Part shown: piece after piece, positions 4,364 through 38,655 of the stretch
Numbering within the stretch: the stretch's first letter is position 1
Layout of the letters: every line of letters starts with the position of its first letter
Assembly: GCA_951406725.2 (NCBI GenBank)
Contig: OX597843.1
Location: 13,144,001-13,208,000 of the forward strand
Length of the DNA: 64,000 nt
Direction of reading: 5' to 3'
Origin: Octopus vulgaris
Taxonomy: Eukaryota
Notes under the pieces: generated by a model
Databases searched by the model: none
The model's input: only the letters and a program-made list of their open reading frames with translations
What the model was told of the DNA's origin: nothing
Made by a program: the position numbers and the translations under genes

Positions 4364-5410
4364 ATCATCATCATCATTGTTCGACCGTGGTCGAGACAAT
4401 GGAATTTACCATGCTAAGCCAGACTTCACGGTCCATCATAGCATTACGGAGGTCCTGTTGCTGGATGCCTGTACTCCTGGAGATTACATCAGGGTAGGAG
4501 AGTGTGCGCCCTCTGGTATTGCGAGTAGATGGCTTCCAGAGGAGAAGAGTAGAAATTACTTTTTTTTCAGCTCTGCAACAATGTCCAGCAAACTGGACTC
4601 TCCTACCTTTCACAAGAGATGACACAGGTGGTAGTTTCCCATATATTTGTACTTTGGTTGGATGACGCTTCCACGAGAGATTTTGAGCTCTCGTAAGGAG
4701 GCAAGTGTAGGTTCCATCCAACTGCCTCTCAAAGAGTGTGCGCCCTCTGGTATCGCGAGTAGATGGCTTCCAGAGGAGAAGAGTATAAATTGCCTCTTTT
4801 TCAGCTCTACAACAATGTCCAGCAAACTGGACTCTCCTACCTTTCACAAGAGATGACACAGGTGGTAGTTTCCCATATATTTGCATTTTGGTTGGATGAC
4901 GCTTCCACGAGAGATTTTGAGCTCTCATAAGGAGGCGAGTGTAGGTTCCATCCAACTGCCTCTCGAAGAGTGTGCGCCCTCTGGTATCGCGAGTAGATGG
5001 CTTCCAGAGGAGAAGAGTAGAAATTACCTCGTTTTCAGCTCTACAACAATGTCCAGCAAACTGGACTCTCCTACCTTTCACAAGAGATGACACAGGTGGT
5101 AGTTTCCCATATATTTGCATTTTGGTTGGATGACTCTTCCACGAGAGATTTTGAGCTCTCATAAGGAGGCGAGTGTAGGTTCCATCCAACCGCCTCTCAA
5201 GCTTCTTTGAAAACGTCTCGGTTTCTGAGCCATATAGTAGAATTGGTTCGACTGTGGCTTTGAAGATTTCAAGTTTGAAGTCTCTACTTAGATTTGATGA
5301 CCAGATCTTATGCATGTCATTACAGGCTGACCAGGCCATACCCTTTCTAGTTAGAAAGTCTTTTCCAGATGATGATATGTATGACCCAAGATATTTGTAA
5401 TCAGAAACGA
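4364..5410 (-). mobile_element. RTE-like non-LTR retrotransposon 3' fragment with internal 234-bp triplication
   Basis: Peptide IFKATVEPILLYGSET..LDGTYTRLL..RVQFAGHC..DREVW is typical of the post-RT region of RTE-type LINEs; (TGA)n tail at 4364-4376. Confidence 0.85.
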
Positions 5411-6182
5411 GATGCCCCTTATTACATCACCTGATGCGATACTTCTCTGAGGGATGCACTACAACTAGTTGTATAGCTTCCCACCTGATGAAACACTTCT
5501 GCACTGTGGGATACTTAAGATATCTTGTAGAGCTGGATTTAGTCTATTCACCTGTATAGTTAATCAGGTTATTCAGGAAGGTGTAATCCCTTGTGACTGG
5601 TGCAGCAATGTGCAATATGCAGCTATGACACGGGCAAGGGAGATGCCTTTAGTAGAAATAATTAGCTGAATGAATCGATCCCAGGACTTATTTTTAAAGC
5701 CTCTGTCTCTGTCGTCTTTCAAAAGCTTGGGTTGTAGATAGATCTATCTCATCTGTCCGCTCCCGTCTCTGCTGCGATTGTCTGCTGTCTCTCCTGTTTC
5801 ACTTGGTTTTATAATATTTGTGGCAGCTAGAAAAACAGACATACCGCAGCAGGGTTAGTACCTAAATAGGTCAACGCTTGTCCAGTTGAACTTAGCCTTA
5901 CATGGCTGAGGTCGCAGGTCACAGGGAGATGACCAATCACTATTTGACAGAACAAAGCAAATCTGTTGGTTGCCGTGGTTTGGGCAACCGAGGATTCTTG
6001 GATTCGGTTTCGAATCTAGGCTTAGAGAAGGAAGTGCTAATTCTTACACTTGGTACCTATTCTATCGGTCTCTTTTGCCAAACCGCTAAGTTATGGGGAC
6101 ACAAACACACTAACACTGGTTGTCAAGTGATTGTGGAGTGACAAACAGACACAAAGACACATACACACATTGGAATTTTTTT

Positions 6183-7789: not shown

Positions 7790-10700
7790 TACATGTAAAA
7801 TACAAAATACAAAGTTATATCTTGATATCGCTAGTGATAACAATACTCAAAATATATAACAGACTGGAATTGTTAGCCCGTCTCTTGTAATTTCGATCAA
7901 TTGTATCTTGTCCTCCCTTTTGTATACAAGTGTGGCTACAATCCAGCCTACCTCTACTTCTTGAGCGGGGGTGCATTTTAAATTCTTTTCCGGGACGTCC
8001 TACGCCCCAGATATAAAGGTAAAAATAAAATATTTCCACTTTGCAAGTTCGAGTCGAGTACTCCCTTGCACGCTCCGTTGACTCGAACCTTGCTTCTATT
8101 GTGATGAATTTACCGCCTCTGATTAGATACCTTTCATAGTCGCACCAAGACACTTTTCGAAGGTGCTTTCCTCCATGTTGTTTTATTATTACCCACAAGG
8201 GGCGAACACAGATGGGACAATACAATCTGATGATGGGGTCAGACAAACGAATGGGTTTTTACAATAAATCGGGTTTAAAAATTTTCATGAATAACAATAA
8301 ATGGACAGAAATCGAGTGATAGGACAGACCGGAAGACATTACGGGTGGAGTGGGTGCGGGTTTAGCTCGGACCCCACGAGCCCCGCCTCCCCACTGATAC
8401 TTTTGGTTGCACTTGGTATTACATTTATGTTGTAACTTTCATTCGCAACTTCCGTGCTACATCCTTCCATCGTTCTTCATACGCTCTCCTAGTCAGGCAT
8501 ATTCTCTCCAGCCCTATCTTCCTTTTCAGGTGAAAGATGAAATAATTCATCAAACCAGGGCCGGAGATGAACTTGCCTGACTGTAAACCTTTCATTCTCG
8601 TCTTCCATATCACCTCTTTCGCGATTGCTACTACAACGAGAAAACGAAACTTACCTTCATTCACAAGGAAATCCGGTGGGTCAATTTTTGTAATCGACTC
8701 AGTCGACAGCTGTACTCTTCGTGTACCTGACAACAGGTGTTCGGCATAAACCCACACCTCAGACACGTCCGGACAATGAACAATCGCGTGCGGGACGGTT
8801 TCCCTATCCCGCCCGCATCTTGGACATATCGGACTGTCTTGGCCACCGTGCCTTGCGAGTTTATCCCGAACAGGTAGAGCTCCTCTGTAGCATTGCCATG
8901 CCAGAGACTTCTGGAAGTTGTCCAGTGTCCTTGGCTCGAACGTACGTCGGAACAGACTGGCCAGCTGATTATCGTCGAGACCTAGGGTTTCCCCCAAGGT
9001 ATCTTCACATTCCGCCTCTACCAACCCTCTATAGAAGAAAGTGGTGGAACCCCCACCGCAGGCGTTGCCCGAGCGACGGAATAGCAGGAGAGCCTTGCGA
9101 CACTCCGTGTACCAAGTACCAAGTTTCGATCTACGATTCAGCCAGGTTTCCCATCCACCGAAACTAGTGAACTTGGGAAACATCAGTTTTGCTAGCGAAG
9201 ACCACACCCGTTCACCATCCAGGTAGAGCCACAGATGTCTTAACCTCAGCGCATGTCTGCGCATCATCAGCCAAGGCATCCCTAGCCCACCCTTTAACGG
9301 TTGTTGACAGCAAGTAGAGCGTTTCACAAGTGGTTTCCCGCCCTTCCACAAGAAGTAGAAGAGCTGTCTTTCCAACTTGATCAACCACGAATCAGGGCAA
9401 GGAACGACGGAAAGGCGGTAGGTGATAACCGATGCGATAAACACATTGGCCACCTCCGCCCTCCCTTTCAGGGATAGCCACCGCCAAGACCAGGTCTTGG
9501 CTACTGCAGCCACCTTGCTCGTTACCTCGCCCCAATTCTTCTCTATTTGGAGGTCTGGACCGAACCAGACCCCTAGCAGTTTAATCGGACCCTCCGTCCA
9601 ACGTCCCACGACGCTGTCAGGAGGCATCGACTTGCCTCTCCAGGTGCCGAGTTGCAAGCCGACTGACTTTTCGCGATTAACTTTTGCTCCTGTCACCGTC
9701 TCGTACACCTCTATGGCCTTGCCTACTTTACATAGGTGGTCCATTTCGGTTACGATGATGGTGATGTCATCCGCGTACGCTGACACTGATTTTCCATTAC
9801 CTGGCTGTCTCGGGATGCCGCTCAGTTTTCGCAGTAATGGCTCAAGAGCCATCACGTACAAAAGCGGGGAGAGCGGACACCCTTGACGAACCGAGCGTTT
9901 GATTTTGAACGGCTTCGACAAGAAGCCGTTCACCCGAACTACCGAGTCGATGTTATCATAAATTTCGATAATCCACCTGAGGAATCCAAGGCTCAGCCCG
10001 AACTGTGCCAGGGCAGATACCAGGTAACGATGGTCGACCCTATCAAAAGCTTTAGATTGGTCTAAATGGACCAGTGCCCCACCCTTGCCAGAATCACTAT
10101 TAAACCCCTCTATAGTGTACCGCATTAGATGGAGATTATCCTGAATGGATCTGCCCGGAACGGCACATGTCTGTGCCCCTCCGATCAGACCATCCGCGAC
10201 ACGCGCCAATCTTTTCGATAACACTTTGGCCAAAATCTTCAACTCTGTGTTTAGCAGAGTGATGGGCCTGAAATTATCAATGCACTCCCCCTTGCTCGGG
10301 TCCTTTCTGACGAGAGTCACTACTCCCCGGCGCACAGATCTGGGTATAAGCCCGTTCTGCTGCCAGTTCGCGTAGACCTCCGCCAGTAGGTGCCCGAACA
10401 AGTCTGGCATACTCTTATATAACTCATAGGGTAGACCATCCAAACCCGGCGCCTTGCCCGCGCCGCAGTCCGCCATTGCCTCAACCACCTCCTCAGGCGT
10501 GATTGGCCCTTCACAGCCCTCCGCATCTCGCCCCGATAAGCGCGGCAGACCGTCGAGTAGGTCCGTAAAGGCCCTCCCCTATCCAGTCCGCCGCACTCAC
10601 CGAAAAGCTGAGCGAAGTGCTCCTGAAAGGCCTCACACATCTCCTCGGGTTCGTTTATCAACTCACCTTGTTGGTTCGTCAAAGATCGAATCGTGGCATC

Positions 10701-14702: not shown

Positions 14703-15943
14703 GCCACAGTAATCTTCAAAGCCACAGTCAAACCAATTCTACTATATGGCTCAGAAATCTGGACGTTATCAAAGAAGCTTGAGAGGCGGTTGGATGGGAC
14801 CTACACTCGCCTCCTTATGAGAGCTCAAAATCTCTCGTGGAAGCGCCATCCAACCAAAATGCAAATATATGGGAAACTACCACCTGTGTCATCTCTTGTG
14901 AAAGGTAGGAGAGTCCAGTTTGCTGGACATTGTTGTAGAGCTGAAAACAAGGCAATTTCTACTCTTCTCCTCTGGAAGCCATCTACTCGTGATACCAGAG
15001 GGCGCACACTCTTCGAGAGGCAGTTGGATGGAACCTACACTCGCCTCCTTATGAGAGCTCAAAATCTCTCGTGGAAGAGTCATCCAACCAAAATGCAAAT
15101 ATATGGGGAAACTACCACCTGTGTCATCTCTTGTGAAAGGTAGGAGAGTCCAGTTTGCTGGACATGGTTGTAGAGCTGAAAACGAGGTAATTTCTACTCT
15201 TCTCCTCTGGAAGCCATCTACTCGCAATACCAGAGGGCGCACACTCTCCTACCCTGATGTAATCTCCAGGGATACAGGCATCCAGCAACAGGACCTCCGT
15301 AATGCCATGATGGACCGTGAAGTCTGGCGTAGCATGGTAAATTCCATTGTCTCGACCATGATCGCAATACCAGAGGGCGCACACTCTCCTACCCTGATGT
15401 AATCTCCAGGGATACAGGCATCCAGCAACAGGACCTCCGTAATGCCATGATGGACCGTGAAGTCTGGCGTAGCATGGTAAATTCCATTGTCTCGACCATG
15501 ATCGCAATACCAGAGGGCGCACACTCTCCTACCCTGATGTAATCTCCAGGGATACAGGCATCCAGCAACAGGACCTCCGTAATGCCATGATGGACCGTGA
15601 AGTCTGGCGTAGCATGGTAAATTCCATTGTCTCGACCATGATCGCAATACCAGAGGGCGCACACTCTCCTACCCTGATGTAATCTCCAGGGATACAGGCA
15701 TCCAGCAACAGGACCTCCGTAATGCCATGATGGACCGTGAAGTCTGGCGTAGCATGGTAAATTCCATTGTCTCGACCATGATCGCAATACCAGAGGGCGC
15801 ACACTCTCCTACCCTGATGTAATCTCCAGGGATACAGGCATCCAGCAACAGGACCTCCGTAATGCCATGATGGACCGTGAAGTCTGGCGTAGCATGGTAA
15901 ATTCCATTGTCTCGACCACGGTCGAACAATGATGATGATGATG
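14703..15943 (+). mobile_element. RTE-like LINE 3' fragment with 234-bp duplication and five tandem 140-bp 3' ends
   Basis: Same family as 4364-5410; 140-bp units start at 15222, 15362, 15502, 15642 and 15782; (ATG)n tail. Confidence 0.88.
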
Positions 15944-19871: not shown

Positions 19872-21059
19872 ATGCCATGCACAAAAAATTCAGCAGAACT
19901 GTCAGATTTTCAAAGAGGTCGTATTGTTGGGCAATCTGAGGCTGGTCTTAGCCAGTGAAAAATTGCTGAAAATCTTCAAATTCCTCTTGCTACTGTTAAT
20001 AGAATTATAGTGCAATTCAAAAGCCAAGGAAAAGAATCAACAGATTCTCGTCCCAGTCAACCTGGGCCCTCGGAAAAGAAGCTTTGCTGCTTGAAGAGAA
20101 CTGTGGAAAACGAACCCCGTTCGAAGGCTTCTGACATTGCAAAACAGCTAGAAGTTAGTCCAAGAACGTGTGTTACATATCTGCATAAACTTGGGTATTA
20201 TGGACGAGCAGCTAGAAGTAGACCCCTCCTTCAACCAATTAATATCATGAAAAGAAAGAAATGGGCTGAGGAGATGCCAGAAAAATCCAGTTCATTTTGG
20301 GATAGAGTAATTTTCTCAGATGAATCCAGATTTCTATTATTTTCAGACAGTGGATGTGTTTGGGTCTGGAGGCTTCCCAATCAAGAATTTGATTTGAAAC
20401 GGCTCCAACCAACCGTGAAACATGGCGGAATATTTGTAATATTAAGGTGGCAAGCTGGCAGAAACATTAGCATGGTGGACGAAATGCTTAGCCGTATTTC
20501 GTCTGCCGTTACGTTCTGAGTTCAAATTGCGCCGAGGTCGACTTTGCCTTTCATCCTTTCAGGGTCGATAAATTAAGTACCAGTTATGCACTGGGGTCGA
20601 CGTAATCAACTTAATACCTTTGTCTGTCCTTGTTTGTCCCCTCTATGTTTAGCCCCTTGTGGGTAATAAAGAAATAGGTATTTCAATTGCCGTTACGTTC
20701 TGAGTTCAAATTCTGCCGAGGTCAACTTTGCCTTTCATCCTTTCGGGGTCGATAACTTAAGTACCAGTTACGCACTGGGGTCGACGTAATCGACTTAATA
20801 CCTTTGTCTGTCCTTGTTTGTCCCCTCTATGTTTAGCCCCTTGTGGGTAATAAAGAAATAGGTATATTTGTAATGGAATGGGGAGCTGTCACCAGCAATG
20901 GTGACAGCTCTCCTTACCATAACAAATATAATGTTGTTCTGAGATGATGTTGGAACCATAAACTCTGAAAAATACATCAAAATACTTAAGCAAGGACTAC
21001 TTCTGATGTGTTCACATGATAACATAACGAAAAATGAGTTTTCATTCCTGGAAGATGGG
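19872..21059 (+). pseudogene. Tc1-family transposase pseudogene interrupted by a SINE; possible C-terminal remnant near 23921-23965
   Basis: ELSDFQRGRIVG HTH start, [19 protein letters not shown], resumes as WGAVT..GTINSEKYIKIL; in-frame stop near 19956. Confidence 0.85.
20441..20863 (+). mobile_element. SINE family B with duplicated body and 11-bp target-site duplication
   Basis: TSD ATATTTGTAAT at 20430-20440 and 20864-20874. Confidence 0.85.
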
Positions 21060-21349
21060 TAGATGGATTTGGTAGACGGAAACTGAAAGAAGCCTGTCAT
21101 ATATATATATATATATATATAATTAATCAATATAGGGTGGCAAAAAAAATTTTGTAGAATTCTTTTGCCACCAGCGGCCTAGTAGGAAAAAATTAAAATA
21201 GTCATAGACCATTTTTAAGTTCAACATCAACAATAAAGGAACGGCCATAATAGGCCATTCACCCACTAGAAATAACAGCCAAAGCTTCAACCGCAAATAA
21301 AAGTTAATTCAGTAAACCAGGAGAAAATTTAAAAAACATTTACCCTGTA

Positions 21350-21456
21350 ATTTCTTATACGATATACCGTTTCATCTGCTGATTAATGGTAAACTAACCT
21401 GATTAAATTAAATCAAGCCAATCTTCCACAGGCCCTCAGATTCTTCAGTAAGAAAT
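21350..21456 (-). ncRNA. Type I hammerhead ribozyme (inverted copy)
   Basis: Reverse complement of 21907-22013. Confidence 0.85.
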
Positions 21457-21906
21457 AGCCCAAGACGGAACAGATATTTTCACGAGGCATTTCCGACGTT
21501 GCCAAGTTTATATCTGACCTAAAATTTTCAAATCGTCGCAAATTTTCTCCTGGTTTACTGAATTAACTTTTATTTGCGGTTGAAGCTTTGGCTGTTATTT
21601 CTAGTGGGTGAATGGCCTATTATGGCCGTTCCTTTATTGTTGATGTTGAACTTAAAAATGGTCTATGACTATTTTAATTTTTTCCTACTAGGCCGCTGGT
21701 GGCAAAAGAATTCTACAAAATTTTTTTTGCCACCCTATATTGATTAATTATGAATTTTCTGGTTAATTCCGTAATGGAATCGACGGCTTATATTTATTTG
21801 CTGCCGATAAATTTGGCGCGAGTGCGACGATTTGAAAATTTTAGGTCAGATATAAACTTGGCAACGTCGGAAATGCCTCGTGAAAATATCTGTTCCGTCT
21901 TGGGCT

Positions 21907-22013
21907 ATTTCTTACTGAAGAATCTGAGGGCCTGTGGAAGATTGGCTTGATTTAATTTAATCAGGTTAGTTTACCATTAATCAGCAGATGAAACGGTATA
22001 TCGTATAAGAAAT
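21907..22013 (+). ncRNA. Type I hammerhead ribozyme, copy 1
   Basis: ATTTCTTA-CTGAAGA-ATCTG..CAGAT-GAAA-CGG(TATA)TCG-TA-TAAGAAAT; predicted cleavage after GUA at 22005. Confidence 0.87.
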
Positions 22014-22398
22014 TACAGGGTAAATGTTTTTAAATTTTCTCCTGGTTTACTGAATTAACTTTTATTTGCGGTTGAAGCTTTGGCTGTTATTTCTAGTGGG
22101 TGAATGGCCTATTATGGCCGTTCCTTTATTGTTGATGTTGAACTTAAAAATGGTCTATGACTATTTTAATTTTTTCCTACTAGGCCGCTGGTGGCAAAAG
22201 AATTCTACAAAATTTTTTTTGCCACCCTATATTGATTAATTATGAATTTTCTGGTTAATTCCGTAATGGAATCGACGGCTTATATTTATTTGCTGCCGAT
22301 AAATTTGGCGCGAGTGCGACGATTTGAAAATTTTAGGTCAGATATAAACTTGGCAACGTCGGAAATGCCTCGTGAAAATATCTGTTCCGTCTTGGGCT

Positions 22399-22505
22399 AT
22401 TTCTTACTGAAGAATCTGAGGGCCTGTGGAAGATTGGCTTGATTTAATTTAATCAGGTTAGTTTACCATTAATCAGCAGATGAAACGGTATATCGTATAA
22501 GAAAT
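22399..22505 (+). ncRNA. Type I hammerhead ribozyme, copy 2
   Basis: Identical to copy 1; predicted cleavage after 22497. Confidence 0.87.
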
Positions 22506-22891
22506 TACAGGGTAAATGTTTTTTAAATTTTCTCCTGGTTTACTGAATTAACTTTTATTTGCGGTTGAAGCTTTGGCTGTTATTTCTAGTGGGTGAATGG
22601 CCTATTATGGCCGTTCCTTTATTGTTGATGTTGAACTTAAAAATGGTCTATGACTATTTTAATTTTTTCCTACTAGGCCGCTGGTGGCAAAAGAATTCTA
22701 CAAAATTTTTTTTGCCACCCTATATTGATTAATTATGAATTTTCTGGTTAATTCCGTAATGGAATCGACGGCTTATATTTATTTGCTGCCGATAAATTTG
22801 GCGCGAGTGCGACGATTTGAAAATTTTAGGTCAGATATAAACTTGGCAACGTCGGAAATGCCTCGTGAAAATATCTGTTCCGTCTTGGGCT

Positions 22892-22998
22892 ATTTCTTAC
22901 TGAAGAATCTGAGGGCCTGTGGAAGATTGGCTTGATTTAATTTAATCAGGTTAGTTTACCATTAATCAGCAGATGAAACGGTATATCGTATAAGAAAT
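22892..22998 (+). ncRNA. Type I hammerhead ribozyme, copy 3
   Basis: Identical to copy 1; predicted cleavage after 22990. Confidence 0.87.
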
Positions 22999-23141
22999 TA
23001 CAGGGTAAATGTTTTTTAAATTTTCTCCTGGTTTACTGAATTAACTTTTATTTGCGGTTGAAGCTTTGGCTGTTATTTCTAGTGGGTGAATGGCCTATTA
23101 TGGCCGTTCCTTTATTGTTGATATATATATATATATATATA

Positions 23142-23675
23142 AGCGCAGGAGTGGCTGTGTGGTAAGTAGCTTGCTAACCAGCCACATGGTTCCAGGTTCA
23201 GTCCCACTGCGTGGCATCTTGGGCAAGTGTCTTCTGCTATAGCCCCGGGCCAACCAATACCTTGTGAGTGGATTTGGTAGACGGAAACTGAAAGAAGCCT
23301 GTCATATATATATATATATAAGCGCAGGAGTGGCTGTGTGGTAAGTAGCTTGCTAACAAGCCACATGGTTCCGGGTTCAGTCCCACTGCGTGGCATCTTC
23401 GGCAAGTGTCTTCTGCTATAGCCCCGGGCCGACCAATGCCTTGTGAGTGGATTTGGTAGACAGAAAGTGAAAGAAGCCTGTTGTATATATGTATATATAT
23501 ATATAGGCGCAGGAGTGGCTGTGTGGTAAGTAGCTTGCTAACCAACCACATGGTTCCGGGTTCAATCCACTGCGTGGCATCTTGGGCAAGTATCTTCTGC
23601 TATAGGCCCGAGCCGACCAATGCCTTGTGAGTGGATTTGGTAGACGGAAACTGAAAGAAGCCTGTCGTATATATG

Positions 23676-23706
<31 letters not shown>

Positions 23707-23920
23707 TTGTGTGTGTGTGTTTGTCCCCCTAGCATTGCTTGACAACCGATGCTGGTGTGTTTACGTCCCCGTTACTTAGCGGTTCGGCAAAAAGAGACCG
23801 ATAGAATAAGTACTGGGCTTACAAAGAATAAGTCCCGGGGTTGATTTGGTTTGACTAAAGGCAGTGCTCCAGCATGGCCGCAGTCAAATGACTGAAACAA
23901 GTAAAAGAGTAAAAGAGTAA
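23142..23920 (+). mobile_element. SINE family A: three tandem tRNA-like heads plus one tail
   Basis: Heads GCGCAGGAGTGGCTGTGTGGTAAG..GGTTCAGTCCC at about 23142, 23321 and 23505; (GTAAAAGA)n tail. Confidence 0.85.
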
Positions 23921-24299
23921 AGAGAGAAATTCCAAAAGAGACAATCGCAAATCTCATCAGGACTAACGAATGTGGTCCTACCCATCGATTGCGTTACAAT
24001 TGTTTGCTTTGTGCATCAAATAAAGGATCTTGAAAATGGAGTCCAAGATACTCTATGCCAGAATAAAAGACAAGTTGGTCACAGATGGAACAACTTTCAT
24101 TGAAGATCTGCTGGATCAAGACAGAACCTGGGGCTAAAGAACAGCAACAAAGGTTAATGATTTTTAGAAAACAAATGAACACCACAACACCTCGTAATCT
24201 TGTGTTGCAAGGGAAGAAAATGAGGTCATGTGATTAATCATGTGATTAATCATGAAGGAAAAAACCAATTTTTAGTTGAGTCATTCTTGATGTCGGTGA

Positions 24300-24375
24300 G
24301 TGAGATGGATGGATGGATGGATCAATAGACAGAGATGTATAAAGATAGATGGATAGATGGATGGATGGATGGATG

Positions 24376-24407
<32 letters not shown>

Positions 24408-24487
24408 AGAAAGAGACAGAGAGACATACATACATGCATAGAAAGATAGTTGGATGGATGGATGGACAGATAGATAGAGAGAGAGTG

Positions 24488-24572
<85 letters not shown>

Positions 24573-24585
24573 GATAGATAGATAT

Positions 24586-24646
<61 letters not shown>

Positions 24647-24667
24647 GAGAGAGTGAGATAGATAGAT

Positions 24668-24750
<83 letters not shown>

Positions 24751-24770
24751 CAGACAGATAGACAGATGGC

Positions 24771-24821
<51 letters not shown>

Positions 24822-25110
24822 GTAGATAGTGAGATAGAGATAGATAGATAGCTAGATAGATAGATAGAGAGATAGATAGACAGACAGAGAGAGAGACATA
24901 TATACATGCATGCATAGAAAAATAGATAGAGACAGACAGACAGATAGATAACTAGAGAGAGAGAGAGGCATACATACATACATGCATAGATAGATAGATA
25001 GACAGATAGATAGATAGATAGATAGATCGATTGATGGATGGAGGGGTGGATAGATTAATAGATAAATAGATGGAAGATAAATAGACAGACAGACAGATAG
25101 ACAGAATGTA
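24300..25110. repeat. (GATA/GGAT)n microsatellite
   Basis: Directly visible. Confidence 0.95.
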
Positions 25111-38333: not shown

Positions 38334-38655
38334 TATTTATTTTATTATAAATGCAAAACAACACCACGGAGGAATTGGCATAAGCTTAAATAATAAACCG
38401 CGACAGGTGAACCCTGATAGGTGAACTGTGATATGGCGAAGGATTACTGTACACGTGTTGCTTTAACTATATTTGTCTTGATTTCAACTTCTGATTCACC
38501 CTCATTGGGCAAAGAAACGGAAGTTCCACTTAATTCATTTGAGTGGAATGTGAGGCATCTGATGAGATGGATGTGTTCTATACCCATGAAACTTAAAGTA
38601 ATGCGGAGCTGAGTCAAAATGCTATTAAGTACACATACATATACATACATACACA

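Follow-up and report, generated by a model that had tools for sequence, protein, structure and literature searches.

The insertion at 21119-23122 of the 64-kb Octopus vulgaris sequence analyzed here (the window) is probably a single non-coding retrozyme copy, written from RNA by the machinery of a Penelope-like element (PLE) that starts at two fixed sites, A and B, in a cycle that would include hammerhead cleavage, a circle, and a dimer. The insertion consists of two head-to-head arms, most examined relatives elsewhere in the genome combine one A end with one B end, many of their arms stop at the predicted cut, and the two arms of a locus share their alleles; cleavage, the circle, the dimer, the use of a single template, and the identity of the helper are the parts of the cycle to which these footprints would point.

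Anatomy of the insertion and its hammerheads

A reading of the sequence alone, made before this analysis, had described a tandem array of about 3.2 units of 492/493 nt, each with a complete type I hammerhead. TRF recovered the array at 21540-23122 (period 493, 3.2 copies, 99% matches), and the right end at 23122 held; the direct arm, however, starts at 21540, and what had been taken for a simple array is part of a two-armed, head-to-head insertion that begins at 21119 and lies inside (TA)n. From left to right, the layout comprises (TA)n, a reversed arm of 0.86 unit, a forward arm of 3.21 units, and (TA)n again. The inverted arm (21119-21540, minus strand, 422 nt; locus L069) is 100% complementary to the direct arm, with its outer end at unit position 239 (site B) and its inner end at 311, while the direct arm (21540-23122, plus strand) has its inner end at unit position 28, i.e., it begins 27 nt past a cut, has its outer end at 132 (site A), and has one base in common with the inverted arm. 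Site B (21119-21172, minus strand) comprises a predicted 13-bp GC-clamped hairpin (unit 186-222) and a 17-nt AU-rich strand, and site A (23088-23122, plus strand) comprises a predicted 8-bp GC-clamped hairpin (unit 98-119) and a 13-nt U-rich strand; both are putative reverse transcription starts. The (TA)n target occupies 21099-21121 on the left, where a few A/T bases overlap with the arm end, and 23121-23141 on the right, a target-site duplication not being delimitable within such a microsatellite. The insertion splits the TA spacer between two units of a 179-bp host repeat of putatively SINE-like nature: the 3' part of one unit, broken at its (TA)n spacer, lies at 21060-21098 (plus strand), the same sequence closes an intact 179-bp unit at ~23270-23305, and the host tandem, as seen in the sequence and the tandem repeat search, extends over 23142-23689 (plus strand), with an intact version of the same junction recurring next door.

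Three identical type I hammerhead motifs were found on the plus strand by pattern, with the stems originally described, at 21907-22013, 22399-22505, and 22892-22998 (predicted cuts after 22005, 22497, and 22990); a fourth, in the inverted arm (21350-21456, minus strand, predicted cut after 21358), had been missed. The spans between the plus-strand cuts would give monomers of 492 nt (22006-22497) and 493 nt (22498-22990, the reference unit, with unit position 1 at 22498), which differ, as first noted, by one base in a T-run, here placed at unit position 22. Each motif has an 8-bp stem I, the core CUGAAGA, a 5-bp stem II with a 58-nt extension, GAAA, a 4-bp stem III (one G-U pair) with a palindromic tetraloop, and GUA. 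The Rfam cmscan of 20000-25000 (E<=1) gave no hammerhead or other ribozyme match, probably because of the long stem II insert. The minus strand of the unit contains no hammerhead core, i.e., the ribozymes are not present in both polarities.

The monomer pairs with itself more strongly than shuffled sequences do (z = -4.6 linear, -3.8 circular). The active hammerhead fold lies 2.2 kcal/mol above the circular minimum free energy, with stem I pair probabilities of <=0.08, and the minimum free energy fold of the isolated motif pairs part of the core elsewhere; cleavage may therefore be incomplete or depend on a partner or protein, as has been reported for PLE hammerheads (PMC11167929). Conservation of the core among genomic copies, proposed earlier as a check, was found: across 247 copies, N7 varies in 24 and every other position in <=1, and older subfamilies carry all four bases at N7 and only GUA or GUC as the cut triplet. 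The ribozyme core is under constraint, the degree of conservation being inflated because loci and motifs were chosen by identity or by core pattern. In the covariation analysis, 98% of cells are paired and compensatory changes occur in two pairs (one in stem I, one in stem II), a number reached in 69 of 500 shuffles with loci partly chosen by motif; the first pair of stem II is mismatched in 3 of 20 haplotypes. Covariation would lend the predicted fold at most modest support.

The reference unit carries no sign of coding (longest stop-free frames, 61 and 68 aa; zero Pfam matches over the cutoff) and no LTR features, ARAGORN returned nothing relevant, and an RT/GIY-YIG open reading frame was found neither within the element nor within the 64-kb window. 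Elsewhere in the window, head-to-tail tandems are common among retroelement ends: tandem copies resembling a LINE 3' coding end occur at 14781-15918 and 4377-5426, and the LINE-like tandems include 235-nt x2, 140-nt x5 (100% identity), and 234-nt x3. A 717-aa open frame on the minus strand (8428-10578) resembles, by reading, a non-LTR reverse transcriptase; a 32-bp inverted repeat (20863-20930, 88%) has miRNA-like Rfam scores below threshold; and a lone hammerhead-like core at 38559, without a clear stem I, is probably a chance or decayed motif.

A dispersed family with two fixed outer ends

The genome searched comprises 2.8 Gb in 227 contigs. The hammerhead motif pattern matched 878 times against 0 for the reversed control, so the motif is not a chance one; exact junctions of the A end with (TA)n number 480 genome-wide and those of the B end 614 on the forward strand only, the reverse count being inflated by overlapping matches. 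Taken together, these counts imply roughly a thousand insertions. Subfamilies span 100% to about 85% identity, and the window copy is 99-100% identical to copies on many chromosomes, which bears out the recent origin proposed in the sequence-only reading; its assignment to tandem type I repeats of the metazoan non-LTR retrozyme kind is likewise sustained by four hammerheads and a non-coding, dispersed family. The assembly artifact it had considered is unlikely, because the same layout recurs at dispersed loci with differing inner junctions.

We examined 126 loci, of which 38 were best scoring, 28 were taken by position among the hammerhead matches, 20 were picked by a B end, and 40 were picked by an A end. 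L044 (same flanks as L043) and second elements in L133 and L199 were excluded before counting, and the variant analysis left out homopolymer-edge positions and 8 nt at arm edges. L043 and L044 lie 63 kb apart and share both the insertion and its flanks, with one copy having a complex insertion in one unit; they represent a segmental duplication or an assembly duplicate. A 57-nt family insertion between TA runs at L149:3200-3256, ending at site A, shows that very short copies exist and escape hammerhead searches.

Counted from the base after the cut, the outer ends of the 126 loci fall at ~132 (A) or at ~228-243 (B). One A end is combined with one B end in 89 of the 126 (30/38 best-scoring, 18/28 positional, 13/20 B-picked, and 28/40 A-picked loci), and A+A or B+B occurs in none; the remaining 37 have a single detected arm or one unclassified end, and in several of these a second arm, too short to align, was recognized by eye. 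Site A is exact, at position 132 in 55 of 59 ends, and (TA)n directly abuts both ends in 55 of 66 loci. Both sites lie 13-17 A/U-rich bases past a predicted GC-clamped hairpin, and the spacing between them amounts to a tail of ~107 nt. Inner junctions vary by locus and mostly show a 1- to 4-nt overlap or short filler. By analogy, the A+B ends are the two-start "tail" footprint of PLEs, and the other features of a PLE-type insertion, namely, a tandem with an inverted truncated copy, a one-ended tail, and a microsatellite target, are present as well. The connection to PLEs that the sequence-only reading had named for the class is supported as well.

L036 and L037 carry a near-identical extra piece of 31-33 nt (unit 88 to 56-58) between their arms. 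At unit position 218, within hairpin B, the same C>G change is found in 14 of 332 copies at 11 loci, mostly in single units, and is possibly a reverse transcription error hotspot.

The stretch is contained in 20 sequencing runs, none of them recorded as RNA, and the unit is covered by contigs from four runs that we presume, as a guess, to be RNA. One 523-nt contig consists of one unit plus 30 nt, for which a circle and a tandem would look alike; the flanking control in the presumed-RNA contigs is mostly high-copy repeat and uninformative. One presumed-RNA run, without matched DNA, shows T>C and A>G clusters, six of which have no counterpart among about 255 genomic copies. These contigs carry no weight in the interpretation. 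Fixation of A-to-I editing in insertions was considered as a separate candidate, with A>G in 7 of 16 private fixed alleles of the first 66 loci (p = 6e-4), and was rejected after it failed to replicate (0/3 in 40 new loci; overall, 3/15 versus 9/100, p = 0.19).

Inner ends, alleles, and the RNA template

The inner ends of the arms cluster at the predicted cut. With a stop window of unit 490-30, set after the A-picked data had been viewed, 30 of the 85 arms reaching their first cut in the 60 end-picked loci stop within it (hazard ratio [HR] 9.4, p = 5e-13), the hazard ratio being 9.9 in the 40 A-picked loci and 8.1 in the 20 B-picked loci (p = 3e-4). Over all sets, the cut bin has 4.5 stops per 1,000 nt versus 0.5-2.2 in the other bins, the 29-nt bin just past the cut is at background (1.0), and a weaker second peak (2.2) is located at hairpin B (unit 200-228). 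No significant excess was seen in the 28 hammerhead-picked loci (HR 1.8, p = 0.15), in line with their ascertainment, and these loci are not independent support. Uniform inner ends, as expected of a "template without a 5' end," had been suggested by the first 66 loci (n = 108, Kolmogorov-Smirnov p = 0.35); that candidate was reversed by the end-picked loci, the apparent uniformity having been produced by a narrow window and by the choice of loci on score or on an intact hammerhead. Later arrivals at the cut stop less often than first arrivals (6/41 versus 30/85, p = 0.02), and stops at the cut are still 3- to 4-fold enriched on later passes (top-score set, pass 3+, HR 3.9, p = 0.001); linear multimers therefore fit as well as circles.

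The two arms of a locus behave alike. Among 28 A+B loci, 8 have both arms ending at the cut and 3 have just one arm ending there (p = 1.2e-4), arms that stop there often have A/T filler at the junction, and family alleles are present in both arms in 253 of 280 cases. On the simplest reading, a share of the templates were linear RNAs with a hammerhead-made 5' end, and one molecule, or molecules of one kind, served as the template for both arms; judged from these genomic footprints, the hammerhead RNA likely cuts itself in the animal. The sequence-only reading had taken the mid-unit ends of the array as the mark of a reverse-transcribed circular or multimeric RNA. Reverse transcription stands, but the ends are fixed at ~132 and ~239 and are not free permutations of a circle, and the many family copies that end at the cut on the inner side speak for templates that were cleaved and linear, in addition to circular ones.

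Arms reach 9 and 14 units; an arm exceeds one unit in 20 of the 60 end-picked loci, and both arms do so in 26 of 48 two-armed loci of the best-scoring and positional sets. In 47 of 66 loci, a total of 63 alleles are fixed in every copy of the locus, and 15 fixed alleles are private to one locus among 106, although unsampled relatives may share them. Because a new allele is fixed in all units, a monomer must become a multimer, and arms of up to 14 units with locus-wide alleles point to such a step, likely by way of a circle; a circle somewhere in the replication cycle is, on this pattern, a reasonably probable intermediate. Across 264 passes over the cut, there is no deletion scar apart from one arm start: 29 passes differ within <=5 nt of the cut, through 24 subfamily substitutions, 4 single substitutions, and that arm start, and the 39 loci checked for insertions at the cut yielded one single-base case. 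Mixed units, found in 12 of 66 and 6 of 40 loci, are not something that one monomer circle can give. At L134 (2723-3291), a 241-nt deletion unit (unit 393 to 140) recurs in one arm, retaining the hammerhead and site A but not site B, and the opposite arm is of full length; a single monomer template gives no explanation of these arms, and the deletion unit may represent a mini-circle or a later duplication. As a spreading subfamily it was rejected, its junction being found twice, at L134 only. Oligomeric circles, sought in periodic variants, were not supported (L068, p = 0.22; L047, p = 0.26; L133, p = 0.03, with the period chosen after looking).

These observations bear on an account that dispenses with the circle, in which PLE machinery copies cleaved monomers and partly cleaved linear multimers and the arrays grow by exact end-to-end jumps between templates or by tandem duplication of the DNA once inserted. 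The enrichment of stops at the cut from the third pass onward fits this account, as do the start of the window's 3.2-unit arm 27 nt past a cut, the existence of mixed arrays, some with variants common to adjacent copies, and the finding that the main PLE substrate in vitro is unprocessed RNA (PMC11167929). Linear copying alone, however, shortens arrays, yet subfamilies 7-15% apart keep multi-unit arms; moreover, the cut crossings are clean, DNA-level homogenization looks slow because singletons outnumber mixed variants 137 to 18, and circles have been demonstrated for coral, mussel, and axolotl retrozymes (PMC7229834). We therefore consider growth without a circle unlikely, if still a serious contender.

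A different objection concerns the stops themselves, which would also arise if the hammerhead were inactive in vivo, the templates were uncut read-through RNAs, and the reverse transcriptase stalled on the folded motif or on the A/T-rich sequence immediately following it. Unit 1-30 of the stop window indeed holds stem I and a self-complementary A/T stretch favoring junctions, hairpin B has its own weaker stop peak (unit 200-228), and most tested Xenopus elements did not cleave (Li et al. 2026). Such stalling is nevertheless improbable, given that the stop excess ends sharply at the cut, with none at the long stem II hairpin beyond it; that first arrivals stop more often than later ones and the arms stop together; and that the core is conserved except at N7, where all four bases occur, and in the triplet, which is GUA or GUC only. 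We see hardly any room for the view that the units, rather than being an independent RNA parasite, arose as a DNA satellite expanding in situ or as 5'-truncated terminal repeats (pLTRs) from an autonomous PLE: Xenopus retrozymes are related to pLTRs (Li et al. 2026), and truncation, tandem arrangement, and inversion are frequent among PLE insertions (PMC8557442), but tblastn revealed no coding sequence next to the unit at the 60 end-picked loci, the arms continue unit after unit, and dispersed loci have the same two ends, each with its own inner junction, and units that are 99-100% identical across chromosomes.

In the reading that we prefer, a retrozyme copied by PLE machinery from sites A and B, (i) tandem copies would be transcribed, and their hammerheads would process a fraction of the RNA to monomers and short multimers, with likely ligation of some monomers into circles; (ii) a PLE protein, predicted to act as a dimer, would bind one RNA at the hairpin sites A (unit ~132) and B (~239), nick both (TA)n strands, and prime one cDNA from each site; (iii) the two cDNAs would run 3' to 5' along the RNA and stop at its cleaved 5' end or, alternatively, roll past the cut on a circle or an uncut multimer; and (iv) the two cDNAs would be joined head to head via 1- to 4-nt microhomology or A/T filler.

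Relation to Penelope-like elements and known retrozymes

The same genome holds an intact PLE family with a 781-aa RT + GIY-YIG frame in 16 of 150 scored matches, a linker (CxxxxCxxC) of the Neptune/Nematis type, a (TA)n target, and, in three inverted copies, a 40-nt tail confined to one end; a pattern search of this family gave no canonical hammerhead. The copy at L103:245-5456 (family at L100-L115) is young, with overlapping frames of 479 aa and 781 aa (RT + GIY-YIG), and its pLTR is rich in CCAAT- and TGACGT-like boxes. A second PLE family (L073, L118, L150, L155) has a tail of about 34 nt and, by eye, a hammerhead-like motif in its 3' repeat, the core or triplet of which is changed in each copy read. 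Comparison of the unit with 52 GIY-YIG loci, a small part of 6,136 first-look candidates, revealed no common sequence, the sole unit match being a separate 57-nt family insertion; L149 was accordingly rejected as a PLE chimera, its 57-nt piece being an independent short insertion that lies about 1 kb away from the PLE fragment. Beside the 20 B-picked, 40 A-picked, and 20 other-hammerhead loci, no PLE/RT frame was found (tblastn for the 60 end-picked loci). Other type I hammerhead-like matches number 5,725 genome-wide versus 405 in the control and belong to many families (e.g., L160, L164, L166, L177, and L178), several of which form arrays with units of about 545, 560, and 568 nt; these arrays have head-to-head arms, and their ends follow a CCCT/AT-rich motif resembling that of the 493-nt family. 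In three two-armed loci of other hammerhead families, the unequal ends lie about 87-89 nt apart.

By genomic definition, the family is a non-LTR retrozyme, for which cleavage and a circle are predicted here. It resembles metazoan non-LTR retrozymes in its non-coding, low-GC tandem units with a type I hammerhead in each, its dispersed, multicopy nature, the presence of PLEs in the same genome, and its strongly self-paired monomer. The unit had been thought long for the class; it lies well inside the reported range of 51-972 bp (Li et al. 2026, bioRxiv 10.64898/2026.07.22.740005), and other families in this genome have units of about 545-568 nt. Cleavage and circles have been demonstrated for the retrozymes of Cervera and de la Pena (2020, PMC7229834), who had already proposed rolling-circle reverse transcription as a retrozyme model, whereas both are predictions for the octopus family; of 9 Xenopus retrozymes assayed, 8 failed to cleave (Li et al. 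2026). The octopus family is set apart by its head-to-head insertions with two fixed ends, the words "inverted" and "target site" being missing from the accessible text of PMC7229834, and by a hammerhead with a 58-nt stem II extension and a 4-bp stem III. "Octopus" has 0 occurrences in that text and is absent from the accessible part of the study by Li, Clavereau and Pollet (2026), which sampled vertebrates, three insects, and one coral; in the open-access literature, we found no octopus retrozyme, no A+B rule, and no run-off at the cut.

The family works like a non-autonomous PLE passenger. PLE insertions form partial tandems with an inverted truncated copy, favor (TA)n, and often have a tail at one end (Craig et al. 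2021, PMC8557442; see also Cervera and de la Pena 2014, PMC4209133), and in vitro two internal reverse transcription starts define the tail, both strands are nicked, and a dimer is predicted (Frangieh et al. 2024, PMC11167929). With these EN+ PLEs the octopus family shares the partial tandems, the inverted truncated copy, the (TA)n target, a tail restricted to one end, and a pair of internal reverse transcription starts on the downstream side of the hammerhead; it differs in having no ORF, in a tail of ~107 nt rather than 30-40, and in that both arms can be multimers. Frangieh et al. (PMC11167929) found cleavage dispensable for the PLE in vitro and detected no RNA-seq ends at the cut, whereas genomic copies of the octopus family stop there. 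The family has no sequence match to the sampled PLEs of its own genome. In L1 twin priming, too, both target strands prime cDNA and head-to-head arms are joined by short microhomology; there, each cDNA represents a different part of one RNA, and the position of the second start varies freely. In the octopus family, by contrast, the starts lie at fixed positions, and the sequences of the two cDNAs overlap.

Retrozymes as a class, one-ended tails, and two reverse transcription starts were known before, and the value added here lies in the mechanistic footprints, which are countable because the unit is short and young, so that both ends and every pass can be read. How PLEs make tandem and inverted insertions and what their hammerheads do are questions left open by Craig et al. 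(2021, PMC8557442), and the family bears on both. It is conceivable, though we hold this only tentatively, that the family is a fossil record of PLE insertion itself, with a dimer, one hammerhead-processed RNA, and two polymerases in file that run off or roll; if true, one model would cover the tandem, inverted, and one-sided-tail structures of PLEs, and the family would provide genomic evidence for hammerhead cutting in vivo as well as a 493-nt minimal substrate with which to test the model. For the existing in vitro PLE system (PMC11167929), the family yields three predictions: strict pairing of one A end with one B end, run-off at the cut, and coupling between the arms.
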